This document shows positions 13,012-43,734 of a stretch of 64,000 nucleotides of DNA, in pieces. The notes beneath the pieces were generated by a model. That model did no database searches and was not told where the DNA came from. It saw only the letters and a list, made by a program, of their open reading frames with translations. This DNA comes from Paludibacteraceae bacterium (lineage in GTDB: Bacteria; Bacteroidota; Bacteroidia; Bacteroidales; Paludibacteraceae). Each line of letters starts with the position of its first letter. Position 1 is the first letter of the stretch. The stretch spans positions 12,946 through 76,945 of the forward strand of contig JAFYMG010000004.1 of assembly GCA_017556705.1 (NCBI GenBank). Direction: 5' to 3'. A program made the translations under genes and the position numbers.

Positions 13012-13021
13012 TGGTTTGATC

Positions 13022-15460
13022 ATGAGGAGGATATTTTTTGTTTTTGGGTTACTCCTGCTTTGTGTGGGAAATATGTTTGCTGAAAAAGATCAGCGTACTG
13101 ATGTCGTGCCAAGTTGGGACATCTTTGATGAGGATGAAACATATGGTAATATGTATCGTTGGCGTTCTCATGCAGCATTTACTCAAATAAATGAAGTCGT
13201 TGTGATGGGAGATAAAGCATATGGTTTATCTTCAAATTCATTATTTTCAGTAAATAAACAGGACGGAGAGATAGAATATTATACCAAATTAAATGGGTTG
13301 AGTAGTTCAGTAATTGATCATATTGCATATAATGAAGAGTTAGATCGAATGTTGATTACTTATCGAAATGGACAAATTGATATTATGACATCCGATGAAA
13401 ATGTACACAATATATCTGATTTATTTTTAAAGCAAATAAGTGCATCTAAACAAGTAAATGATATTTGTATGTACCAAGATAAGGCCATCTTAGCCATGAG
13501 TTTTGGCCTGTTGGTCGTAGATATGAAAAAAGTAGAAATATCAGATACATACTATATTGGAAATAATGGTTCGGAAGTAGATGTTGATTATGTTACGGTG
13601 ACAACTGAAGCAATATATGCGGCTACGAATGAGTACATATATACGGCTGATTTAACGGACAATTTACTAGATTATGAGTATTGGAAAGTTCTTTCATTTC
13701 CAAAAGGAAAAGTAAATGGTATGCGAACCCACCAAAATGCAGTGCATTTATTGGTAAATCAAAAGTTGTATATTTTACAAGGAAATGATTGGTCACCAGT
13801 ATCGGTAGGCGCAAAAAATCCGCCACTTTTCCGTCATCTATGTGCAACTAAAAATAGTTTGTATGCTTTGCCAAATAATAGATATGGTGTTTGGAAAGTA
13901 GATTCAAATATGGTGAATTTACATTTGACCTACGCCTATAATTATGCTATACAAGAGGATGGTAATGCATATTGGCTGGGATCAAGTGATAATGGATTAA
14001 TTCATCTTTATGGGTCAAAAGCTCCTGAATATCAGACTGATATCCAAGAGTATTATCCTGATGGACCAATAAATAATTTTGCATATCGATTGCGTTTTTT
14101 TGATGATAAATTATATATGTTGCCCGGAGGAAGATGGGCCAGTGAGTATAAACGTCCAGGAGATATTATGATTTATGAAGATGGTATATGGACTAATATC
14201 AAGAATGCTGATTTGGTAAAGGCTGCAAATGGACATAAATTATATGATTTCATGAATGTGGCGCAGGATCCAAATGATGCAAGTCATTACTTTGTCACTA
14301 CATATGGTACCGGGTTGCTAGAGATGAGGGATACTAATGTGATAAAAATTCATTTACCGTCTAATAGTAAACTTGTTTCCGCAGCACCAGCTTATCCAGA
14401 TTACTACACTCGAACAGATGGTGCTATGTATGATGATCAAGGTAATCTGTGGTTGTTAAATATGGGTGCTCCTAATGCAGAAAATGGGAAAATACATGTG
14501 ATATCACCTGATGGCGAATGGCATTCGTTTGAATTGTTGCGTAATCATTCAAGTATTGTTTTAAATACTGCAGGAGAAATATTGGTAGATAAGAGAAATC
14601 CACAATGGAAATGGATCCCTGTATTACGAGCGGATGCTGGTTTGATTCTGTTGCAAGATAATGGTACACCTATTAATCCACACGATGATAAGGTTACGTA
14701 TCGTAATGAGTGGGTGGACCAAAATAATAAACTAATTCAGCCGAATAATATCTATGCAATCGCGCAAGATTATGTAAATACGATTTGGGTTGGAACATCT
14801 TCTGGTATATTCGCAATACCTATGTCCGTTGATTTTACGGCTTCTAATCAATGCAAGCGTGTTGTTATTCGACGTAATGATGGCAGTGGATTAGGAGATT
14901 ATTTATTGGATAACGAGCAAATCAATGCGATTGCTGTTGATGGCGCAAATCGTTTATGGGTAGGCACCTCAAATTCGGGTGTTTATTTATTAAATCCAAT
15001 AGGATCAGTAGAAGATGATGTCAACTATACAATGGAAACAGTTGCTCATTTTACAACAAACAACTCTATATTGCCAACTGATGAAATAATATCTATTGCG
15101 ATTCAAGAGTCTTCTGGAGAAGTGTTTATTGGCACTAGCGGCGGATTAGTTTCTTACATGAGTGATGCTACTAAACCAGAGGAAACATATGATGAATTAT
15201 ATGCATATCCAAATCCGGTACATCCAACTTATCAAGGGTATATAACAATCAAAGGCCTAATGGATGATTCAGAGGTTCGGATTGTTGATGCAAGTGGTAA
15301 TCTTGTAAAAATCCTATATGGAACAGGGGGAACTGTAGTGTGGGATGGAACAAACGCCCAAGGACAACGTGTTGGTGCTGGAGTCTATACTGGTTTATGC
15401 AACACGAAGTCTGGCAGTGGACATGGCACTATAAAAATATTGATACTAAATAAGAACTAA
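13022..15460 (+). CDS. Beta-propeller (two-component regulator propeller type) protein with T9SS C-terminal sorting domain; PorZ-like
   Basis: Signal peptide, repeated propeller blades (e.g. IWVGTSSGIF, LWVGTSNSGVYLL) and a C-terminal CTD YPNPVHP...VRIVDASGNLV...GVYTG...KILILNK. The ORF track starts at TTG 13016; the ATG is at 13022. Confidence 0.75.
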   Translation: MRRIFFVFGLLLLCVGNMFAEKDQRTDVVPSWDIFDEDETYGNMYRWRSHAAFTQINEVVVMGDKAYGLSSNSLFSVNKQDGEIEYYTKLNGLSSSVIDHIAYNEELDRMLITYRNGQIDIMTSDENVHNISDLFLKQISASKQVNDICMYQDKAILAMSFGLLVVDMKKVEISDTYYIGNNGSEVDVDYVTVTTEAIYAATNEYIYTADLTDNLLDYEYWKVLSFPKGKVNGMRTHQNAVHLLVNQKLYILQGNDWSPVSVGAKNPPLFRHLCATKNSLYALPNNRYGVWKVDSNMVNLHLTYAYNYAIQEDGNAYWLGSSDNGLIHLYGSKAPEYQTDIQEYYPDGPINNFAYRLRFFDDKLYMLPGGRWASEYKRPGDIMIYEDGIWTNIKNADLVKAANGHKLYDFMNVAQDPNDASHYFVTTYGTGLLEMRDTNVIKIHLPSNSKLVSAAPAYPDYYTRTDGAMYDDQGNLWLLNMGAPNAENGKIHVISPDGEWHSFELLRNHSSIVLNTAGEILVDKRNPQWKWIPVLRADAGLILLQDNGTPINPHDDKVTYRNEWVDQNNKLIQPNNIYAIAQDYVNTIWVGTSSGIFAIPMSVDFTASNQCKRVVIRRNDGSGLGDYLLDNEQINAIAVDGANRLWVGTSNSGVYLLNPIGSVEDDVNYTMETVAHFTTNNSILPTDEIISIAIQESSGEVFIGTSGGLVSYMSDATKPEETYDELYAYPNPVHPTYQGYITIKGLMDDSEVRIVDASGNLVKILYGTGGTVVWDGTNAQGQRVGAGVYTGLCNTKSGSGHGTIKILILNKN

Positions 15461-22350: not shown

Positions 22351-22387
22351 CAGGCTGAAAGTGAATTTAATAAATAAACTTATAATT

Positions 22388-23986
22388 ATGAACATTAAAA
22401 CAAACGTATTGAAAGTATTAGTAGCCATCTTTGTAATCTTGGCTTTCGTTGCTTGCAAATCGTCACGCAATTCTGACCTTAACACCAATACATCTTTCCA
22501 AACAGGTTGGAAGTCTTCTGATGAATCAACTATTGATTTTCAGGCATATGAGGGTATTCTTTCCGATGCCCCTGTTGGTATGTTGCCTATTGAGGGGGGA
22601 GTGTTTACAATTGGCCAAGTAGATGAATTCATTACGGCTCCTCGCAACAACGAGCGCAGAACGCTGACTGTGAGTTCATTCTTTATGGATAAATATGAGG
22701 TGTCAAATATCGCTTGGAGAGAGTATATTGGCTGGAATGAAGCTGTTTTTGGCCATACTAAGCCAGAACTGCTCAAGAGCCTTTTGCCAGATACAACTGT
22801 TTGGCGTGATGAGATGGCGTACAACGAACCTTTTGTAGAATACTATTTCCGCCATCCTGCATATAGTTTCTATCCTGTTGTAGGTGTTTCTTGGGAGCAA
22901 GCTATGGCTTACAGCCAGTGGCGTACAGATCGTGTGAACGAACAGATTCTCGTTTTGAAGAAATTTATAGAGAAACCAAATTACAAGCTACTCCGAGCAA
23001 ATGCATATTTTACGAAAGAGGAAATTGAAAAATACGTAGATCCTTCTAAGTACACCTTGATACCAGTGGAGAGACCTGCCGCTAGTGGTGGTAGTGCGGA
23101 AATGTATCAAGTACCATATGAGTGGATTAAGGATCAATTCGTATTTAATACGGAGAAGTATCTTAAATCAACTGCTTATAATCCTTCTACAGGTGCAGCT
23201 GAGCGCAAGAGATTTGATCAAGGCCGTAAATTGAATGTTGCCGATGGTATTTTATTGGTCGGATATCGTCTTCCTACTGAGGCAGAATGGGAATATGCTG
23301 CGTTTGCTCCTAAGGCTGGCTCTGATGGATTATCTAAAGAAGGAAAAATATACCCATGGTCTGGATATCATCCTCGTGATATCAGTAGCAGAAATAAAGG
23401 CAAAATGCTTGCCAACTTTGTACGTGGCAGAGGTGACATGATGGGAGTTGCTGGTAACCATAACGACGGCTATGTGTTGACTGCTCCTGTAGATGCGTAT
23501 GAACCTAACGATTTTGGTTTGTACAATATGGCGGGTAACGTAAATGAGTGGGTATTAGATGTTTATCGTGAAACTACATTTGAAGAAATGACCGAATACA
23601 ACGCATTCCGTGGCAATGTCTATTCTTCTATTAAAAAGGATGACGATGGTAATCCTATTTTGAATGATTATGGTCAATTAGATATTGAATGGAAGAAAGA
23701 GGATGATAAACGTAACTACCGTGATGGTGATGCTGGCTCTTTGTTTGATACAGACTATCCTTTGAGTACTGTTGGGTTCACTCCAGAGCAAATGGAAAAG
23801 GTAAAATATGACCCATCAGACGTGTTGGCTCCTCGTATCAATGATAGTACCCGAGTTTACAAAGGTGGCTCATGGAATGACCGTATCTATTGGCTCAATC
23901 CTACTACCCGTCGTTATATGCAACAAAATCAATCCTCTAGCACAATAGGTTTCCGTTGTGCAATGAGTATCTTAGGTAAAGAATAA
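22388..23986 (+). CDS. FGE/SUMF1-domain lipoprotein, GldJ/PorK family (T9SS/gliding associated)
   Basis: Lipoprotein signal VILAFVAC|KSS and FGE-sulfatase-like blocks (GGVFTIG, YEVSN..W.EY, RLPTEAEWEYAA, NMAGNVNEWV, GGSW, GFRCA). At about 530 aa the size fits GldJ better than PorK. The ORF track starts at GTG 22361. Confidence 0.7.
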   Translation: MNIKTNVLKVLVAIFVILAFVACKSSRNSDLNTNTSFQTGWKSSDESTIDFQAYEGILSDAPVGMLPIEGGVFTIGQVDEFITAPRNNERRTLTVSSFFMDKYEVSNIAWREYIGWNEAVFGHTKPELLKSLLPDTTVWRDEMAYNEPFVEYYFRHPAYSFYPVVGVSWEQAMAYSQWRTDRVNEQILVLKKFIEKPNYKLLRANAYFTKEEIEKYVDPSKYTLIPVERPAASGGSAEMYQVPYEWIKDQFVFNTEKYLKSTAYNPSTGAAERKRFDQGRKLNVADGILLVGYRLPTEAEWEYAAFAPKAGSDGLSKEGKIYPWSGYHPRDISSRNKGKMLANFVRGRGDMMGVAGNHNDGYVLTAPVDAYEPNDFGLYNMAGNVNEWVLDVYRETTFEEMTEYNAFRGNVYSSIKKDDDGNPILNDYGQLDIEWKKEDDKRNYRDGDAGSLFDTDYPLSTVGFTPEQMEKVKYDPSDVLAPRINDSTRVYKGGSWNDRIYWLNPTTRRYMQQNQSSSTIGFRCAMSILGKE

Positions 23987-34974: not shown

Positions 34975-37900
34975 TTATTTCATTTCAATTCCCATGACGG
35001 TATATGTCTTCCCGTTGTGCAGTATCAATAATTGACCTTCGCGGAGGAACTTCTGATAAGAAGATGGGGATGTCGGATTCTCTACTGCTGTTGGGTCTTG
35101 GTTATAAATACAGCCGAAGGTGTCATATTCGGGGTGCGAAGTGGTGTAGAGGCAACTATCTTCGCGCCAAGCACAGAGCATGACGGAGGTTTGTGTTTCG
35201 CTGCCAGCACTTCTGCTTGGGGCAGCGTGAACATCGCTTGTTCGCTTGGCAGTATTGTGCACAATACCGTCAATAGATCCCAAGCCTGCTAACCATACTT
35301 TTTCTGCGTTTGTAGCTGTGGTGGTTTCATCAGGGAAGACAACCTCGAGGAACATTCTGCAAGCTCCATCTTCAGTGGTATCTTTATCAACCACAACATG
35401 GGTGTAGGTGGTTTCTTGAGGGTAGTTGTTGATACCCGCAAAGATTTCGATGGTGTCGCCAGGCTCCGCTGTGAAGTCATAGAGGACATACTCTACTCCG
35501 TCACGGAGGAAGTACACGCGGTTGTCTTCATCTTCGCCGAAATGCAATGCACCTACAAAAGATTTGGTGATAGCCGTATCTTTGGTAGATTGGCGAGCAA
35601 GTTGGTAGTAGGTTTTGTTGTTAGCTACTATGGAGTCGTTCTCCAAGGTATAGCTAAAGGTCTCTGCACGCAGGATAGTTGGGGTACCGTCCATCTCTTT
35701 GGTTTCTACTTCTAACATATTCCATTGAGTAGGCGTTGGTCTGCCACCTATCTTGCCATTCTTTGCATTGTCCTTGCGTGGTCCACGGTCATAATCGCAC
35801 AGGCACTCTGCACCCAAACGCTCCATTTCAGTATCGTCCATTTGGTAGAGAAGTTTATTGTTTTTGCTTACGCAGACGAGATAAGAACCTAAATAACTCA
35901 CAGGAACAGGTAAATGATCCGCAATGTGATGGAAGAATGTTTCGCTCATTGAACCGATACCTTCTACATACACCGTACCATCGCTAAATTTCCAGCGTGT
36001 ATATTCTTTTCCATCCAACAATGTCTCTTTTGATAACTCAGTAACAACCAATGTGTCAATAGGATATGTATAGTCATAATCTGACAGAGGATAGTCCACA
36101 ATTCCTACAATTCCTTCGTATTCGAGGAATTCAGGAGTTACCAAATTTAAAGTGGTCAATGTATCTCCTAACTCCAATGTGAAATCATACAACACCAAAT
36201 CTTTTTTCTGTATTTCGCTATAAACGAGGATTTTGTCATTCTCCTCTCGTAAGTACCAACTTCCCCATTGAAGATAAGGTTTGCCATCCATCATTGTTAT
36301 TTCTTGGCTTGGACCTGTCAGTCCTGATGCCCATTCATCACCTTCTTCGCCATAATAACCACTACAAATAGTCTGCTGCAAGCCCCAGAGTGTTGGGAAG
36401 AGGTCTTCAGGTTTTTGCTCTGCATTATACTCGCATAAGCACTCTGTTTCCAATTGCTCCATCTCGGCATCATCCATCTTGTAGAGGAGTTGACCGTTTT
36501 TGCTGGCGCAAACGAGATGAGAAGCAGTTAGATCTTCCGTAGTGCGTTTATTAGCGATTAACTCGTAGAAATCTCCAGACAAACTGCCTATGCCTTCAGC
36601 ATATTCCATTCCATTGTTGAATGTCCATTTTTTATACTCTTTGCCATCTAACAGGGTAATGGTAGAAACCTCTGTCACGACGAGTGTGTCTCCTGGATAT
36701 ATCGTTCCATCTGCCTCTTTGCGATAATTAACCACATTTAAGATCGAAAGAGGATAGATGGGACCCCAGTCACCTCTGCTAGAATAATCAATGTATAACA
36801 TAGGAAGAGAATCACCTACTTCTAGCGTGAAATCATATAAAACATATTCATAAAGTTCAGTTAAGTTTTTATATGTCCTACTTTCTACGAATATTTTGTT
36901 ATCCCTTTCACGCAAGTACATTTGTGAATGATATAGCGTTGGGAAACTTAAATCTAATACAACTTTTGTAAAGTCTTCTTTTCGTGTCGTATCATTAGTA
37001 CTTCTCTCCTCATGAATTGTTCTGCTTAGTCCTGCTAAAGTTGGAAAATGTTCGTACGTTACTTCACCTGCATTATAGCGACAACCGAGATCTTTATTGT
37101 CGGCATATTTTAATTCGTCATCACGATAAGCGCAGAGAAGGTAGAAGCTAGCACCTCCTACAGTACCATAGTCTTTGGCTAACAAAAAACCATCTGTAGA
37201 ACCAACTCCCTCAATCCATTTTACTGTCGCATATTCTATATATTTATCCTCATATCTATCATATGGATGGAAATATATCGTTTTTAGATTGGTTAGAGAA
37301 TCAACTTCAACATCATAGACTACACCTGGACCTAAGGTGTCACCCACTTGTGCGGTAAAATCATAGACTACACTCTCAGAATTACCAATGGCTCTATATA
37401 CTTTTCTGTCGTCGCCAAAACGAACAGCTCCCATATAATACTCTTGACTTGGATCTGAGGTTAAATAATAAATAACGGTAGAATATAATTTCCCATTAAT
37501 GATCGTATCTCTGTCTAATTTGTATTGCCATGTCTCTTCTGAATCTAATCTCGCCCCGCCAGAATGCTTAAACACATTCCATGTGTTGCACCATTGGGAT
37601 TTGTAGGAAGTTTCTACTTCGCACAGACACTCTGCGCCAAGGCGTTCCATTTCGGCTTCGTCCATTTGGTAGAGGAGTTGACCGTTACGGCTTGCACAGA
37701 CGAGGCGTGTGTCAATATATGTAGCTGGATGTGCTGTGTGTTGTATGCAAAAATAATTACCAAAACCTTCACCATTGATAGCACCTATGCCCTCTATATA
37801 TTCTATTCCACAAGCTAATGTCCATTTCTTATATTTTTTTCCATCCAATAGCGTGATAGTAGAAACATCTGTAACACGAAATACTGCTCCACGACTTTTA

Positions 37901-39522
37901 TCATCATCAAATGGACGTATTGTGAAAGGTAAAGTATCTCCTATCTCTAATGCCCAGTCATATAGTACAACATCCTCATATATTTCAAATTCGGGGCTAT
38001 AGAGTAGTACTTGATTATTTTCCTCTCGGAGATAATTTCTTCCATCATACAAATACCATTTTCCATTAACGAGAGTAGGTGTATATTCATTGAAAGACAC
38101 GAGAGAAGGGGCACCAGCTCCGTCTGTATGAAATTCTACCTCTGTTCGTTGCAAGCCCCAAAGCGTTGGGAAGAGGTCTTTAGGTTTTTGCTCTGCGTTA
38201 TACTCGCAGCCATATTCTATAAATGTATCATTATCTGTAAATGCGTCATTATCAACAGAATAGGCAAGCACATTATCTTTGTAAGCGCAAAGCAATTGAT
38301 AGTTGCTACTGCCAGGCACTAATAGTCCACCATGTAAGAATCCGCTGTATGAGCCAACAAACTCTTGCCAAATCAAGGCAGAAGGGATAGTGTCACCTGT
38401 TATAGGATGAATAATATCCATAACATATGTATCCTCTGCGATACCACCCGCCGTGGAGTAATTATCTGTTATTACGCATTTGTAGGTCTTGAAGTGTTCG
38501 TAGTTATTGATGCCAGAAAATACCTCAAGCGTATCGCCAAACTCATGATAGCCAAAGTCATACAATAAGTATTCGGCGTTGTCATAATAAATATATGCTT
38601 TCTGGTTTTCAGCAAATCGCACGGCTGCTACATACTCCGCAGCACTCTCATCGTATGCTGCCCAATGACGTGTAACAGCAGTGTATTCTTTACCGCCAAT
38701 GATAGTGTCGTGGGCTAATTTATATTGCCATGTTTGGGCAGTTTGCTCAAAAGCCATACCATCAAATTGCAACACATTCCAAGTATTAGTTCTCCATTGC
38801 CATTTATTAGACCACGAAGTGCAAGGGCAATCTATATTGAGTAGGTCTCTTTTTTCGTCATCCATGAGATAAACGAGTCTATCGTAAATGGAAGCACAAA
38901 CAAGGTCTTCTTCTACACAGCAAGTAGGAAGTTCTTCCCATGGATTTCTGATTATAGCGAAGAAATCTGCACCTAAATTGCCAATGTACTCCATATACTC
39001 CATACCGTTGCTGAATGTCCATTTCTTATACTGGTTGCTATCGCACATCATAACCATAGACACATCGGTTACGATTAAGGTATCAATAGGGAAAGATACA
39101 TATTCGTCAAGATGGATAGGATAATCCACCACAACAGGTTTAACTCCAGGTAGTATTGGGTCACCCTCTGTCATAGGAACAATATCAATATTTAGGGTTG
39201 TGAGGGTGTCGCCTACTTCAAGGGTAAAGTCATAAAGTACCAAATCCTTTTTTGCAGGTTCGCTATAAACAAATATTCTACCATCTTTGTCTTCGCGTAG
39301 CCACAAATCGTTGTATTCGATATAGTAGTTACCATCGATTTCGAACATATTATCTTCAAAGCTCAATCTATTGAGTGTCCTATTTTGCTCATTGCCTTCC
39401 ATGTAATGACAAGAAGTGCGTTCCAAGTATGCGAGCGTAGGAAACAAGTAACCGAATAATGTTTCTGAAAACATTTGTGTACTCATTAGCGCACAAAAGA
39501 GAAAAAGTAATGTTCGTTTCAT
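34975..39522 (-). CDS. Large secreted repeat protein (1515 aa; 7 copies of an unassigned module)
   Basis: Signal peptide. Four A modules (LVLYDFTLEVGDTL...TLLDGKEYKKWTF...LVCASKNGQLLYQMD.AEMERLGAECLCE) and three B modules (ETWQYKL..DTII.GK.Y...AVRF...LLCAY). Short C-terminal GQLLILHNGKTYTVMG tail. Confidence 0.85.
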   Translation of the reverse strand: MKRTLLFLFCALMSTQMFSETLFGYLFPTLAYLERTSCHYMEGNEQNRTLNRLSFEDNMFEIDGNYYIEYNDLWLREDKDGRIFVYSEPAKKDLVLYDFTLEVGDTLTTLNIDIVPMTEGDPILPGVKPVVVDYPIHLDEYVSFPIDTLIVTDVSMVMMCDSNQYKKWTFSNGMEYMEYIGNLGADFFAIIRNPWEELPTCCVEEDLVCASIYDRLVYLMDDEKRDLLNIDCPCTSWSNKWQWRTNTWNVLQFDGMAFEQTAQTWQYKLAHDTIIGGKEYTAVTRHWAAYDESAAEYVAAVRFAENQKAYIYYDNAEYLLYDFGYHEFGDTLEVFSGINNYEHFKTYKCVITDNYSTAGGIAEDTYVMDIIHPITGDTIPSALIWQEFVGSYSGFLHGGLLVPGSSNYQLLCAYKDNVLAYSVDNDAFTDNDTFIEYGCEYNAEQKPKDLFPTLWGLQRTEVEFHTDGAGAPSLVSFNEYTPTLVNGKWYLYDGRNYLREENNQVLLYSPEFEIYEDVVLYDWALEIGDTLPFTIRPFDDDKSRGAVFRVTDVSTITLLDGKKYKKWTLACGIEYIEGIGAINGEGFGNYFCIQHTAHPATYIDTRLVCASRNGQLLYQMDEAEMERLGAECLCEVETSYKSQWCNTWNVFKHSGGARLDSEETWQYKLDRDTIINGKLYSTVIYYLTSDPSQEYYMGAVRFGDDRKVYRAIGNSESVVYDFTAQVGDTLGPGVVYDVEVDSLTNLKTIYFHPYDRYEDKYIEYATVKWIEGVGSTDGFLLAKDYGTVGGASFYLLCAYRDDELKYADNKDLGCRYNAGEVTYEHFPTLAGLSRTIHEERSTNDTTRKEDFTKVVLDLSFPTLYHSQMYLRERDNKIFVESRTYKNLTELYEYVLYDFTLEVGDSLPMLYIDYSSRGDWGPIYPLSILNVVNYRKEADGTIYPGDTLVVTEVSTITLLDGKEYKKWTFNNGMEYAEGIGSLSGDFYELIANKRTTEDLTASHLVCASKNGQLLYKMDDAEMEQLETECLCEYNAEQKPEDLFPTLWGLQQTICSGYYGEEGDEWASGLTGPSQEITMMDGKPYLQWGSWYLREENDKILVYSEIQKKDLVLYDFTLELGDTLTTLNLVTPEFLEYEGIVGIVDYPLSDYDYTYPIDTLVVTELSKETLLDGKEYTRWKFSDGTVYVEGIGSMSETFFHHIADHLPVPVSYLGSYLVCVSKNNKLLYQMDDTEMERLGAECLCDYDRGPRKDNAKNGKIGGRPTPTQWNMLEVETKEMDGTPTILRAETFSYTLENDSIVANNKTYYQLARQSTKDTAITKSFVGALHFGEDEDNRVYFLRDGVEYVLYDFTAEPGDTIEIFAGINNYPQETTYTHVVVDKDTTEDGACRMFLEVVFPDETTTATNAEKVWLAGLGSIDGIVHNTAKRTSDVHAAPSRSAGSETQTSVMLCAWREDSCLYTTSHPEYDTFGCIYNQDPTAVENPTSPSSYQKFLREGQLLILHNGKTYTVMGIEMK

Positions 39523-39595: not shown

Positions 39596-39650
39596 TACCG
39601 TTTATCTACCGTTTATCTACCGTTTATCTACCGTATATCAACCGTAGTTG
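39596..39650. repeat. 11-bp tandem repeat TACCGTTTATC (3 perfect plus 2 degenerate units)
   Basis: Perfect units at 39596-39628, taccgtAtatc at 39629-39639 and aaccgtagttg at 39640-39650. Lies 74-128 nt upstream of the repeat-protein ATG. Confidence 0.9.
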
Positions 39651-39678: not shown

Positions 39679-40461
39679 CTATTTTTTTATCAAGTAATAC
39701 ATTGCTGTTGTATAAAAATCAGATAGAAACGGAATTTGTAAGTATTTGGGTATTATACGAGGTTGCAAACCGAATTTTATATCGTAGTTGGGGTTAATTA
39801 AATAATGTGTATGTATTACTATTTGATATTGCTCTTTGTCTAAAATGTTTTCAAAGCGGTGCAAACTGATGCCTGTGTCTTTTATACTGATAAGGGCATT
39901 GATTGTGTTTATACTCTCTCCTCCAAATTGTAGTACCGTTTTATATAAATATGTAGGCAATAGATGCAACCAAGGTGTATGTGATAGCACTTTGTTACGA
40001 CATATTTGCTGATGCCCTCCAAAAGGATTACACCAAACAGGAAAACCAAAGAACACTAATGTATCTACATGCATAAAACATTTAAGTTTGTGCATAAACG
40101 CCTCTTGGTTCGCTATGTGTTCAATTACATCCCTAAGTATAATTAAGTCAAATGTTCCTATTTCTTTAGAGGATACTTCATTTATATCATTCGCTATAAA
40201 ACGCAGTTTTTCGTGGTAAGGATGATCCATGAAAAATGTTTTAGCTCTTTCCAATTGAGCAGTATCTATATCAACCCCTACGCAATGACATCCTAAATCC
40301 AAAAAAGGTTTTAAGTTGCCTCCTTCTCCACATCCAATTTCCAGGATACGAAGGTGGGGTGTGATAGGTAGTACTTGCTCAATGTATGGAATGACATACT
40401 TTTGCGTGCATTTATTCTGTTCTTTGAAGTAAATTTCTCTGTTTCTGTGTCGGTTTTGCAT
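39679..40461 (-). CDS. Class I SAM-dependent methyltransferase
   Basis: Motif I ILEIGCGEGGN and motif II-like FDLIILRDVIEH. Confidence 0.8.
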   Translation of the reverse strand: MQNRHRNREIYFKEQNKCTQKYVIPYIEQVLPITPHLRILEIGCGEGGNLKPFLDLGCHCVGVDIDTAQLERAKTFFMDHPYHEKLRFIANDINEVSSKEIGTFDLIILRDVIEHIANQEAFMHKLKCFMHVDTLVFFGFPVWCNPFGGHQQICRNKVLSHTPWLHLLPTYLYKTVLQFGGESINTINALISIKDTGISLHRFENILDKEQYQIVIHTHYLINPNYDIKFGLQPRIIPKYLQIPFLSDFYTTAMYYLIKK

Positions 40462-40485
40462 ATTTGCGGTGGATTAAATTCACTG

Positions 40486-40493
40486 CAAAATTA
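40486..40493 (-). promoter_or_regulatory. -7 promoter box TAATTTTG (methyltransferase)
   Basis: TAnnTTTG match 25 nt upstream of ATG 40461. Confidence 0.55.
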
Positions 40494-40588
40494 GTGCGAT
40501 GATCCGAAACGTGCAATAACAATGGGCTTTTGTACTGATTAGTAAAATATAAATTATTAATTACCTGTAAGTTGTGTGTGAAATTGTA

Positions 40589-42001
40589 TCACTTTGTTTC
40601 CTGTAGAATATTGTACAGATGCTTGTACAGATCTCGTGTTGGTATGCCTATTTTCTGTGCGACACGGCGTTTGAAGGTGCTGATGCCTGTAGGCGAATAA
40701 TGCATCCAATCCGCCAGTTCCTCTAGTGAGGCGTTAGGATAAAGGAGCATATAGGTGCAAAAAATATTCTCGCGATTGGAGAGGTGGTAGGTCTCCAACT
40801 GAGATAGCCAGTCGTGGAGTAGAGTGTCTAAGTCTTTCTTAAGTTCGTTGTAATCATTCCACTGTTTGCGAGGACGTGGATATGTGGCACGGATATTAGA
40901 GAGTTGGGCCGTGACAGACAAGTCTTCTATCTGATGATGAGCAACTTGTAGGCGGTGGGTAGCATATCGGCGGTGTAGCACGATGGTGATGAGTAACAGC
41001 AAACAGGCTACAACTAAACATAGGAGCGCAATCCATGCCCAACGATAAGGATAGGGGTTTGCCAAATGTTTTTCAAGTTTGGTTAGTGCGCTTTTATACT
41101 TGCCTACACTCTCCATCAGTAGGTCGTTAGCGTCTTGTCGCGCGTGCGCATACGCGCTCAGTTTATTTATATCTCCACGTGCTTTGGCGTCCTGCATCAA
41201 GCAGTAATAAGCATTAACCAAATCGTTGGGGTCGCTAGATAGGTCTACAATAATTTTTGCAAAGGGAAGGGCCTGCGCAAAATTGTCCATATCTAGATAA
41301 ACTTGCATGAGTTTCTTGTAGGTAAAGAATTTGTATTCTTCATACTGCCAGAAGTCTAGACTCTGGTGAAAATAGTAAAGAGCAGAGTCGTATTGGAGTT
41401 GCTCGTAGAAATAGAGCCCTTTGGTCTCGTAGAAGCGTGCGAGGTAGTAGTCGTCTAAGTTGTAAGAGGCTGCGATACGGAGTACGCTATCAGCTTCAGC
41501 GAAATGGTGAAGGTAGGTGTGGAATTCGCTGACGTCTAGCAAGGTGTGTGCGTAATACCAATTTTTGCCACTAGTTTTGAACGCGTCATTGGCATGAATG
41601 AAGAAGATGAGGGCAAGGCTATCGCTCTCGTTTTGTTTGCTGATATGTGCTAAGCAAGAATTGATTCGTCCACGATAGATAGGATCGTCTATCTGTGCAC
41701 GGTCGGCAGCGATATAATGCTCTGCTGCTTGGGTGATTTGGTCATCAAGACTGAGATGGCGCCCGAGGTAGTAGTGGGCTTTTCCGAGTTGGTTGTGTGC
41801 AAAGAGACGACCGAAAGGGTTATCGAGCATGCGGATAGCTTGCTGCAGCGCTGCGGTATCGTCGTAGAGGATGTGTTCGGTTTGGTCGAGACTATCAGCG
41901 ATGGAGATAGTAGCATGTGCTTCTTGGTAGCGAGTGCAGTAGTCGCAGGAAACCAAGAGTAGGCAGAGAAGCAGGTATGTAAGATGACGAACAGGTTGCA
42001 T
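40589..42001 (-). CDS. Membrane-spanning TPR-like sensor with C-terminal LuxR/sigma-70-region-4-like HTH
   Basis: Signal/lipobox LLLVSC, about 320 aa of helical TPR-like repeats, TM helix WAWIALLCLVVACLLLLITIVL, and C-terminal LSNRE...SLEELADWMHYSPTGISTFKRRVAQKIGI. Start set at ATG 42001 because the -7 box at 42032-42039 lies inside the longer ORF. Confidence 0.7.
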   Translation of the reverse strand: MQPVRHLTYLLLCLLLVSCDYCTRYQEAHATISIADSLDQTEHILYDDTAALQQAIRMLDNPFGRLFAHNQLGKAHYYLGRHLSLDDQITQAAEHYIAADRAQIDDPIYRGRINSCLAHISKQNESDSLALIFFIHANDAFKTSGKNWYYAHTLLDVSEFHTYLHHFAEADSVLRIAASYNLDDYYLARFYETKGLYFYEQLQYDSALYYFHQSLDFWQYEEYKFFTYKKLMQVYLDMDNFAQALPFAKIIVDLSSDPNDLVNAYYCLMQDAKARGDINKLSAYAHARQDANDLLMESVGKYKSALTKLEKHLANPYPYRWAWIALLCLVVACLLLLITIVLHRRYATHRLQVAHHQIEDLSVTAQLSNIRATYPRPRKQWNDYNELKKDLDTLLHDWLSQLETYHLSNRENIFCTYMLLYPNASLEELADWMHYSPTGISTFKRRVAQKIGIPTRDLYKHLYNILQETK

Positions 42002-42031
42002 AATAAGCGGTATTGATTTGGATTGCGTTTG

Positions 42032-42039
42032 CAAAGGTA
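42032..42039 (-). promoter_or_regulatory. -7 promoter box TACCTTTG (TPR-HTH regulator)
   Basis: TAnnTTTG match 31 nt upstream of ATG 42001. Confidence 0.55.
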
Positions 42040-42145
42040 GTGAAAATATTCAAGTTAAGCAAGTGTTTTGGTAAATGTACTCGTTTTTATTATGATGAGT
42101 GTTGATAATGTGGTGCTTATAACGATTTTGTACACTTATAAAAAA

Positions 42146-42170
42146 ATCACCTACGCATTGCGCAGGTGAT
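42146..42170. terminator. Bidirectional terminator ATCACCT-N-AGGTGAT after the exbD operon
   Basis: Arms atcacct/aggtgat plus inner cgc/gcg, with A6 before and T4 after. The arms are identical to those of the terminator at 34927-34959. Confidence 0.7.
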
Positions 42171-42194
42171 TTTTGTTGAGATCAATCTATTAGA

Positions 42195-42665
42195 TTAGTA
42201 GGATGTACGTTGGGTAGCAGCATAGCTGATCTTCAGTGCGTACGCACGGCGAAGCTCTTGCTTGATATCAGCGATGATACCCATCTTAGTCTCCTTGTCA
42301 GCCTTGATAGACACGGTCATCAAACCTTGGTCAGACTCTTTCATTGAAGAACGCTCGTTGATGATGAAATCACCAATCTCTTTTGCGTCAGCGAAAGCAT
42401 CGTCCAATTGGATACGTGTTTCAGCACCGTATTGTTTGCGGAACTCAGCAGTAGGAGTACCTACATAGATGTAACGAACCAATGATTTTTTCTCCAACTT
42501 AGTCAACTCAGTAGCTTGAGGGTTGGTGAAGTGAACCTTGAAGTTAACCTCCTTCATAGAAGTTACAGACATGAAGAAGAACAAGAGCATGAAGATGATA
42601 TCTGGCAATGAACTGGTGTTCAATGCTGGCATCTCACGTTTATCGTTTCTACGAATTTTTGCCAT
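42195..42665 (-). CDS. exbD: ExbD/TolR family biopolymer transport protein
   Basis: N-terminal basic segment plus TM helix LPDIIFMLLFFFM, then a periplasmic domain. Confidence 0.85.
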   Translation of the reverse strand: MAKIRRNDKREMPALNTSSLPDIIFMLLFFFMSVTSMKEVNFKVHFTNPQATELTKLEKKSLVRYIYVGTPTAEFRKQYGAETRIQLDDAFADAKEIGDFIINERSSMKESDQGLMTVSIKADKETKMGIIADIKQELRRAYALKISYAATQRTSY

Positions 42666-42667
42666 AC

Positions 42668-43249
42668 TTATTTTCCTCCATAATTTTTAGGTTCAGCCTC
42701 TGAAATCTTTTGAGGGTAGATCTTAGAAATCTTCTTTTGCCACTCCTCATCGAGTTCGTTATAAGACTTGTTGAAGTACTTTTTAGCGCACTCTTCGCGC
42801 AATTCATTGTAGGCGGCAACGAGTTCGTTTTGCACATCCAAATATGCTTGGTACTGTGTTTCCATGTCGTTTTGCACAGAAATCACGTGCTCTTTGGTGT
42901 ATTTGAGCGTACCGAAAGGTTGTCCAAAGTCCTCTTCGAAAAGCTTTGGCATATCAGCCTTATCCTCTGGGTTTGCAATAAACTCCTTCGCCTTCGCGCG
43001 CAGTTGCTTAATATCAAGTTCTTGACCTTGCACAAGGAGTTTGTTCTCCCAGTTAATCTTCACAACAAACAAGTTGCGTTTGTTGATATCGGTGTCCTCA
43101 ACCTTTTGATCGGGTGGAATAGGAGGAGGCAAACGACGTGCCAAACCTTGATTCACATCCATGGAGGTGGTCACCAAGAAGAAGATGAGCAGCAAGAACG
43201 AGATATCAGCCATAGAACTGGCGTTAATCTCTGGAATTTTCTTTGCCAT
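42668..43249 (-). CDS. exbD: ExbD/TolR family biopolymer transport protein (long form)
   Basis: INASSMADISFLLLIFFLVTT anchor and an ExbD-like periplasmic domain. Confidence 0.85.
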   Translation of the reverse strand: MAKKIPEINASSMADISFLLLIFFLVTTSMDVNQGLARRLPPPIPPDQKVEDTDINKRNLFVVKINWENKLLVQGQELDIKQLRAKAKEFIANPEDKADMPKLFEEDFGQPFGTLKYTKEHVISVQNDMETQYQAYLDVQNELVAAYNELREECAKKYFNKSYNELDEEWQKKISKIYPQKISEAEPKNYGGK

Positions 43250-43257
43250 AACTACAA

Positions 43258-43734
43258 TTACTTTTTAACTTTTGTATAAATAACACCCCAAACCAATGCT
43301 ACAATTGTAGAAGCAGTAAGGATGTAAACAAGATACATAATAGCATCACTCATACGAGCCATGTTACCTACGTTATCGGTACCTTCGTAACCGAGGATTT
43401 CGATTTTCTCAGGGCTACCCAAGAACCAGCATAGAGCGCAAAGACCTACAGCTGCAAGAACTACACCTACAGAAGCAAATGCAGATTTCTTGTTCACTTT
43501 AAGTGTGTCAAACCATTTCCAGATAACAAAACCGAAAGTAACGAGGATAACAAGAACTACGAGCGCATAAATCCAATAGAGGAGTACGTTGGTGAACTTT
43601 GGAATATCCAAGAAGTCACCTGCTACCTCCAACGAACCTTCAGAACCTCCAAGGAAGAACATCGCAGTAGCGACGATACCCACTATCATGAGGATCCAGA
43701 GGGTTACTTTTGGGAATAATTTATAATTCTTCAT
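43258..43734 (-). CDS. Hypothetical 4-TM membrane protein within the exbB-exbD operon
   Basis: Four hydrophobic helices, tightly packed between exbB and exbD. No family recognised. Confidence 0.6.
   Translation of the reverse strand: MKNYKLFPKVTLWILMIVGIVATAMFFLGGSEGSLEVAGDFLDIPKFTNVLLYWIYALVVLVILVTFGFVIWKWFDTLKVNKKSAFASVGVVLAAVGLCALCWFLGSPEKIEILGYEGTDNVGNMARMSDAIMYLVYILTASTIVALVWGVIYTKVKK

Follow-up and report, generated by a model that had tools for sequence, protein, structure and literature searches.

The 64-kb window analyzed here (the whole stretch of contig JAFYMG010000004.1 under study) belongs to a metagenome-assembled genome (MAG) of an uncultured ruminant-gut Paludibacteraceae bacterium and contains a gene for a 1515-residue secreted repeat protein. 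After its signal peptide, the chain consists of seven modules of about 200 residues in the order A-B-A-B-A-A-B, followed by a 41-residue C-terminal tail and nothing else. A preliminary description of this DNA had recognized the seven-module arrangement, and the hidden Markov models (HMMs) that we built on the modules account for the full chain after the signal peptide, with boundaries within a few residues of those first proposed. The open reading frame (ORF) that it placed at 34975-39522 exists; the description gave no strand, and the gene lies on the minus strand. The features of the gene are listed below in the direction of translation.

34975..39522, minus strand: whole gene with an ATG start, 1515 residues plus stop, from the ORF list and its translation
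39463..39522, minus strand: signal peptide, about residues 1-20 (MKRTLLFLFCALMSTQMFSE), an MKR-hydrophobic N-terminus read from the sequence
38818..39447, minus strand: module A1, residues 26-235 (HMM boundaries and module BLASTP)
38197..38823, minus strand: module B1, residues 234-442 (HMM boundaries and module BLASTP)
37618..38175, minus strand: module A2, residues 450-635, which lacks about 25 residues of variable loop
37072..37614, minus strand: module B2, residues 637-817 (HMM boundaries and module BLASTP)
36430..37050, minus strand: module A3, residues 825-1031, used for the AlphaFold2 model
35794..36402, minus strand: module A4, residues 1041-1243 (HMM boundaries and module BLASTP)
35101..35748, minus strand: module B3, the terminal module, residues 1259-1474
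34978..35100, minus strand: C-terminal tail QDPTAVENPTSPSSYQKFLREGQLLILHNGKTYTVMGIEMK, 41 residues (1475-1515), a proposed minimal sorting signal of the kind used by a type IX secretion system (T9SS)
35080..35094, minus strand: PT/AVE, a putative PorU-type cleavage site, residues 1477-1481, 37 residues from the C-terminus

The signal peptide is probably of type I and shows no good lipobox; its cleavage position was read from the sequence rather than from a prediction tool. Homologues have a common MK(R/T)-hydrophobic N-terminus that ends 26 residues ahead of the first A module, and their N-termini back the upstream ATG used here. The best of the relatives is a 100% identical protein from a Paludibacteraceae MAG, IKT71_01935, which is annotated from Met59 (1457 residues) and omits window positions 39349-39522 (residues 1-58). 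Its start at Met59 leaves that annotation with no signal peptide and with a truncated module A1.

The modules are about 180-215 residues long and fall into two types. Self-BLASTP of the entire protein returns the identity match only, and the repeats emerge from module-versus-module comparison, which gives identities of 31-41% among the A modules (E 5e-22 to 3e-44) and of 28-35% among the B modules (E 1e-11 to 4e-24), with a weak resemblance of A to B (E about 1e-4). Alignment of the A profile with the B profile in hhalign is far stronger, with a probability of 97.8% and an E-value of 9e-13 over 145 columns. Therefore, the early guess that both types share one fold holds, and A and B are, as judged from their profiles, two subtypes of one domain. 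The motifs listed in the preliminary description (LFPTL, YLRE, LYDF..GD, LVCAS/LLCAY, ECLCE and GCxYN) are all present in the alignments, and the landmarks of the wider family are W...DT-I-x-G-x-x-Y, (L/V)RE..n-k-VY, LLYDF...VGD, WIEG(I/V)G and LLCA(Y/S)...GC. Invariant cysteines stand in LVCAS and ECLCE of the A modules and in LLCAY and GCxYN of the B modules, and they may form disulfides.

Does this domain belong to a catalogued family? Scans with Pfam-A and NCBIfam recover no module family in the whole protein, in the tails or in 78 distant relatives. PDB sequences give no match in phmmer or in hmmsearch with the A or B profile; chance PDB matches to an antibody and a response regulator were discarded at E-values above 0.03. 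AlphaFold2 predicts module A3 as an all-beta domain of about 15 strands with one short C-terminal helix (predicted local distance difference test (pLDDT) 89.4, predicted template modeling score (pTM) 0.84) and models B3 together with the tail at a pLDDT of 79.4. Foldseek searches of 350,542 PDB chains with the A and B models find none at E <= 0.001, and a BFVD search with the A model finds no match. The best Foldseek scores of the module models in PDB and BFVD are E 0.05-0.09 with template modeling (TM) scores of 0.32 or less (E 0.05-0.07 and TM 0.2-0.3 in the PDB), and hints of lipocalin/CRABP, trypsin-like and LolA-like folds were dropped at TM 0.32 or less. LolA-like open beta-barrels (Porphyromonas gingivalis LolA, 8cgm, and LolA3, 9tp6) are the best Foldseek neighbors of the B module, at an insignificant probability of 0.6 or less. 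The B module and these barrels are both all-beta meanders; however, TM does not exceed 0.32, E is at least 0.07 and the sequences show no similarity, so that a relationship is unsupported. The module thus stays unassigned, with no Pfam, NCBIfam or PDB match and two confident models that lack a Foldseek match, and these searches turned up neither a characterized family nor adhesin homologues that are annotated or structurally solved, the two outcomes that would have contradicted the preliminary description. A new fold is a possibility on these models. In the A module, the variable loops at residues ~85-120 and 156-175, where pLDDT falls to a minimum of 54, could provide surfaces for binding or antigenic variation of the kind seen by antibodies. 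Separately, the Bacteroidota O-glycosylation sequon D[ST][AILVMT] occurs 18 times in the protein, compared with 5.9 +/- 2.3 in shuffles, and falls on the conserved module positions GD[TS]L, DTII and DTLVVT. This excess may mean that the modules carry many O-glycans, or the motif may have only a structural role.

The module family is large and variable in architecture. Whole-protein relatives number 607 in a set of 5.8 billion proteins, and the best 120 of them fall into 32 module strings, among which are ABAB, ABABAB, ABAAB and BABAB. A B module comes last in all of these 120 except one, and nearly all then carry the tail; the ABABAAB string occurs in eight analyzed proteins, including the query and its NCBI duplicate. 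An exhaustive HMMER search of 1.84 billion cluster representatives with the B profile collects 4857 clusters (50% identity) at E <= 1e-3, of which 943 remain at <= 1e-10 and 105 at <= 1e-30; clusters with one to four modules are numerous. About 40% of the homologues listed carry the leucine-rich repeat (LRR) family PF13306 (LRR_5), with or without PF13855. This BspA-type LRR region precedes the modules, and in homologues of resolved architecture ~280-765 residues stand N-terminal to the first module.

Canonical T9SS sorting domains accompany the module in its more distant relatives. Among 78 distant family members, 22 carry PF18962 (Por_Secre_tail, the type A C-terminal domain (CTD)) and two carry CHU_C (type B), and NCBI labels several members, including ones from Paludibacteraceae such as MBO5728208.1, as 'T9SS type A sorting domain-containing protein'. 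Given these CTDs and names, the module can therefore be read from its sequence associations as a widespread, uncatalogued passenger module of T9SS cargo across Bacteroidota. The type A CTD proteins (TIGR04183 / PF18962, for example MBO5728208.1) resemble the query in their module family, in the combination of a signal peptide with a putative C-terminal sorting element and in the T9SS context of the genome. They differ from it in that the query yields no HMM match and lacks the 70-80-residue, seven-stranded sandwich of the type A CTD, only 41 residues lying beyond its last module. Overall, the C-termini of the family take three forms: a GQLLI tail (89 of 147 representatives, by regular expression), long type A CTDs and a short form, 'YDLTGRxV...KGIYIxNGKKVLVK'. 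Within the family, tail and CTDs are thus interchangeable.

The query ends in the first of these forms. Its tail follows the consensus K-L-R-[DN]-G-Q-L-L-I-x-[RH]-x-G-K-x-Y-N-x-x-G-x-E-V, which in the query ends 4 residues ahead of the stop codon, and a tail of this kind stands at the extreme C-terminus of 210 of the 285 module-family proteins collected. When one genome from each GTDB species was scanned for the pattern K[IL]L[RHY][ND]GQLLI, tblastn confirmed 161 matches, of which the best 80 were analyzed as loci; because the pattern is narrow, the taxonomic picture is skewed to Paludibacteraceae. Nearly all of the 80 come from MAGs of Paludibacteraceae or unclassified Bacteroidales (rumen, colon, caecum), with several per genome. 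The tail closes the ORF in every locus, a few residues from the stop, and A and B modules are absent from 70 of these 80 ORFs. A Pfam scan of 59 non-module passengers of the tail identifies LRR_5 (BspA LRR) in 20, the InlB B-repeat in 12, Big_2 in seven and peptidase C10 with the Spi inhibitor in four, and further passengers are a subtilase (S8), an M6 peptidase, a pectinesterase, an amidase_3 and a hyaluronate-lyase N-domain. By domain content, these passengers are the usual T9SS cargo set, and the tail, which closes dozens of otherwise unrelated proteins with signal peptides, reads as a general C-terminal element in the lineage. A search of the 5.8-billion-protein set with a 42-residue tail profile returned four tiny fragments from 19 candidates and is uninformative on distribution.

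A second regularity lies just upstream of the tail core. The strict motif [PT][TQ][GAST][IVL][ED], to which the putative cleavage site PT/AVE conforms, is found in 18 of 65 unrelated tail proteins but in only 0.27% of background windows (an approximately 100-fold difference), and a looser cleavage-like motif is found in 40 of the 65 against 4% of the background. The cleavage-like motif always lies 36-42 residues from the C-terminus, upstream of the K..GQLLI core. In the AlphaFold2 model, pLDDT drops below 50 at residues 1478-1486 (model residues 220-228), which form the sole low-confidence stretch between B3 and the tail hairpins, and the tail itself is predicted as three short strands, YQKFLR, QLLILH and KTYT, with pLDDT ~77-82.

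How does the tail compare with the T9SS signals already described? In Prevotella intermedia, short CTDs of 40-55 residues with three strands and the motifs B-D-E have been validated by mass spectrometry (Ye et al. 2025, PMC11969387), and their cleavage consensus, PT/GI, is located in a flexible linker (PMC11969387). The literature that we searched mentions short CTDs for P. intermedia only and contains no description of the tail or of the module. The tail resembles these short CTDs in several respects. It is a very short element (36-42 residues) preceded by a PT/G-I-type motif in a flexible linker, it is predicted by AlphaFold2 as a single three-stranded sheet, it contains a common Y-x-x-x-G-x-x-V stretch that is similar to motif B, and, like them, it is found on LRR proteins, proteases and putative adhesins and beside long CTDs in the same taxon. 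However, in the tail the GxY-I of motif D and the K/R of motif E do not follow the motif-B-like stretch. Furthermore, the tail has a preceding K-L-R-[DN]-G-Q-L-L-I hairpin, is slightly shorter, and comes from ruminant-gut Paludibacteraceae, where its evidence consists of sequence and models.

Profile alignment locates the shared part more precisely. In hhalign, motif B of the short CTDs (YDLTGRxV) is matched by the last 14 columns of the tail (GKTYNVxGxEV) at a score of 20.4, whereas column shuffles score 8.4 +/- 2.2 and none of 200 reaches 20.4. A second, weaker alignment places the tail segment 'ilrNGqLlI' on the D/E end, 'YIxNGkKvlv'. Therefore, the tail shares sequence elements with the CTDs but not their published order. 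A collinear B-D-E reading is possible by eye and is unsupported by the alignments. Because both the HMM match and the B-D-E order failed, we file the tail neither with the type A CTDs nor with the published short-CTD family. We claim that it may nonetheless work like a short CTD. The suspicion in the preliminary description that the C-terminus is a cut-down surface-protein element of the T9SS type is borne out insofar as the tail is general on T9SS-like cargo and has a motif-B-like stretch in common with the short CTDs.

The short form, which fits the published account of the P. intermedia short CTDs, is itself present in the module family. Nine module proteins (P0210, P0225, P0226, P0236, P0244, P0248, P0259, P0260 and P0262) end in 'YDLTGR..KGIYI.NGKKVLVK'; they come from metagenomes outside P. 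intermedia, one of them from a Bacteroidaceae MAG. TIGR04183 and PF18962 miss this short B-D-E type in module proteins as well. Short CTDs thus appear, from these sequences, to be more widespread than the literature states.

The remainder of the window provides the secretion context through two genes.

13016..15460, plus strand: PorZ, a component of the T9SS attachment complex (NCBIfam NF052228 T9SS_PorZ, E 3e-187; bit score 624, cut-off 260)
22361-23986: GldJ/PorK-like lipoprotein (GldJ E 2e-106 and GldK E 8e-69, both below the curated cut-offs)

PorZ is the anionic lipopolysaccharide (LPS) delivery protein of the T9SS, and its presence shows that this genome encodes such a system together with anchoring at the cell surface. 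The ORF chosen in the preliminary description as the full-length CTD against which the tail was judged much shorter is this PorZ and not ordinary cargo. PorU, PorV and Sov are not seen in the 64-kb window.

We propose that the gene encodes an adhesin-like surface protein that varies in length, is exported by the T9SS, is anchored at its C-terminus and bears an undescribed mini-CTD, and we assign this interpretation a probability of about 0.6. The Sec signal peptide would carry the protein to the periplasm, where the 41-residue tail would act as a minimal sorting signal recognized by the T9SS shuttle and translocon. The PorU sortase would then cut near PT/AVE, 37 residues from the end, and join the new C-terminus to surface LPS. 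As a result, seven all-beta modules would be chained on the cell surface with A1-B1 at the distal tip, and they would most likely serve as a variable-length stalk with binding surfaces in the manner of a fibrillar adhesin. Recombination at the conserved linkers between modules alters their number. The sequences and profiles establish the architecture, the kinship of A and B, their absence from domain catalogues, the occurrence of canonical CTDs in the family, the broad use of the tail and the mosaic pattern; the T9SS dependence of the tail, its cleavage, the anchoring and the adhesive role are inferred.

The distal geometry of A1-B1, the variable copy number and the LRR partners together indicate an adhesin-like role. 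Fibrillar adhesins combine a tip domain with tandem stalk domains and a cell anchor. The proposed protein would resemble them in its tandem repeats of one domain type, its varying copy number, its anchor at one end and its more conserved distal unit. However, its stalk domain is not a known Ig-like family, and its anchor would be a T9SS/LPS linkage. BspA-type LRR proteins (PF13306; Tannerella forsythia BspA) offer a second parallel as large, repetitive T9SS surface proteins, and LRR_5 is the commonest passenger of the tail. They are built from 23-residue LRRs, in contrast to the 200-residue all-beta modules of the query, in which a Pfam scan finds no LRR, so that the protein falls outside the BspA type as defined by PF13306.

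Several observations weigh against the proposed export and anchoring. TIGR04183, PF18962 and CHU_C miss the whole protein and the isolated tail even at E = 10; the same CTD models catch a long-CTD control (E 1.4e-8) yet also miss the P. intermedia-like short type. The order of elements in the tail is not collinear with B-D-E but permuted, with nothing following the motif-B-like stretch. Motif E closes with a basic residue that the tails do not conserve, their last residue being K, E, Q, L or N. One tail match (L078, a 375-residue ORF) lies on a 3077-bp contig, CAVFIY010000280.1, binned as Bacteroides uniformis; Bacteroides is not known to have a T9SS, so that either this contig was binned wrongly or it speaks against dependence of the tail on the T9SS. 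Finally, the adhesin role is drawn from architecture and fusion partners.

The lack of a CTD model match, the unusual motif order and the possible occurrence in Bacteroides uniformis would also fit a tail that is unrelated to the T9SS and acts as a surface-retention or outer-membrane association element, such as a beta-hairpin that docks on an outer-membrane protein or LPS, or a vesicle-sorting element, with export by another route. We regard this alternative as unlikely, given that canonical type A and B CTDs occupy the equivalent position in the module family, that the passengers are classic T9SS cargo, that a PorU-like motif stands at a fixed distance, that the similarity to motif B exceeds shuffles and that PorZ is present. 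Lipoprotein surface export, in particular, is unlikely because there is no lipobox.

A different alternative concerns the modules rather than the tail. They could be carbohydrate-binding or enzymatic units that act on plant or host glycans, making the protein a secreted, unanchored multivalent lectin or glycan processor of the rumen or hindgut. The homologous genomes are all ruminant-gut MAGs, the tail-bearing proteins include pectinesterase and hyaluronate-lyase types, and aromatic and acidic residues that are invariant across the family (W, Y-D-F, G-D, E-G-x-G) could make a sugar site. However, these residues fall within predicted strands and turns, where their role may be structural. No carbohydrate-binding module, lectin or enzyme is matched by sequence or by fold, and the domains to which the module is fused are of the LRR binding type and not catalytic. 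We regard this possibility as somewhat less likely than a T9SS-independent tail, and we continue to favor the T9SS-exported, adhesin-like surface protein.

The variable length proposed for this surface protein has a visible trace in the DNA. The linker YNAEQKP(K/E)DLFPTLWGLQ occurs twice, and its two DNA copies are 93% identical over 59 nt, compared with 60-79% for other module DNA.

38150..38208, minus strand: linker DNA repeat copy 1, at the B1-A2 junction, encoding CEYNAEQKPKDLFPTLWGLQ, 93% identical to copy 2
36377..36435, minus strand: linker DNA repeat copy 2, at the A3-A4 junction, 59 nt

Nine homologues are 90-97% identical to the query over residues 1-441/459 (signal peptide, A1, B1 and linker). 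Beyond the B1-A2 linker, they fall to 55-72% identity or change module order, and this break coincides with the 59-nt repeat. The terminal B module and tail of most homologues are 67-80% identical to those of the query, whereas internal B modules are 27-39% identical. The preliminary description had suspected duplication or recombination at this linker; the coincident break in the nine homologues and the varied module strings of the best 120 relatives bear the recombination out.

Comparison at a fixed genomic position leads to a similar picture. In two other Paludibacteraceae genomes, a module gene occupies the same slot, downstream of a run of ExbD, ExbD and an unannotated protein of 470-481 residues. 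The module count at this slot is five (ABAAB) in one genome, six (ABABAB) in the other and seven here. Together with the identity patterns, these counts amount to modules being gained, lost and exchanged in place through recombination at conserved junctions. ExbB and a gene for a 158-residue protein are visible in the locus whose flank extends that far, and a methyltransferase gene is present in one of the two. The full order is ExbB, 158-residue protein, ExbD, ExbD, 470-481-residue protein, optional methyltransferase and module gene (window 39679-43734; L081 3694-7737; L082 1-7666). In L082, an LRR_5 protein gene and a second copy of the 470-residue protein gene are inserted, and the slot seems to collect surface-protein genes. 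The 481-residue ORF of the window (40589-42034) has no Pfam or NCBIfam match, and its 470-residue counterparts stand beside ExbD in L081 and L082. An operon role for the neighbors (a TonB-dependent receptor, the methyltransferase and the ExbBD cluster) was set aside, as they are housekeeping-type syntenic genes and the receptor gene is convergent.

Although the MAG source, the 59-nt linker at 93% identity and the mosaic homologues could suggest that the seven-module order is an assembly artefact in which paralogues were joined at the repeated linker, such a chimera is very improbable, because the repeat is shorter than typical reads, module DNA is only 60-79% identical, the frame is intact over 4.5 kb, an identical protein exists in an NCBI record, the ABABAAB string recurs in the eight analyzed proteins, that record included, and the gene sits in a conserved syntenic slot.

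What would a functional tail imply? T9SS cargo is usually predicted through the CTD of 70-80 residues. At somewhat less than even odds, we tentatively suggest a broader proposition: the tail and PT/[GAS][VI]E may constitute an unrecognized T9SS signal class of ~38 residues, with an arrangement unlike that of described CTDs, which would mark much of the secretome of Paludibacteraceae and ruminant Bacteroidales, and the A/B module may be a new fold that is common in the T9SS cargo of Bacteroidota. If this is true, that secretome is invisible to current CTD models. If the tail works, many LRR adhesins, proteases and polysaccharide-active proteins are overlooked when the secretomes of abundant ruminant-gut Bacteroidales are predicted, the minimum for PorV/PorU recognition is looser than thought, and a very small tag becomes available for secretion engineering. 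The A/B module, with thousands of 50%-identity clusters, a confident model, no catalogue entry and no relative of solved structure, is a clear target for domain curation and structure determination.

The region upstream of the gene displays one further element. A scan that did not cover Bacteroidota promoters found no terminator and only sigma-70-like matches at most 1.6 standard deviations above shuffles. At window positions 39596-39645, which are 74-123 nt upstream of the start codon, an 11-bp unit (GATAAACGGTA on the strand of the gene) is repeated in tandem 4.5 times. This array is found once in the window and upstream of none of the homologues in the 80 loci, and it could bind a regulator or be prone to slippage.

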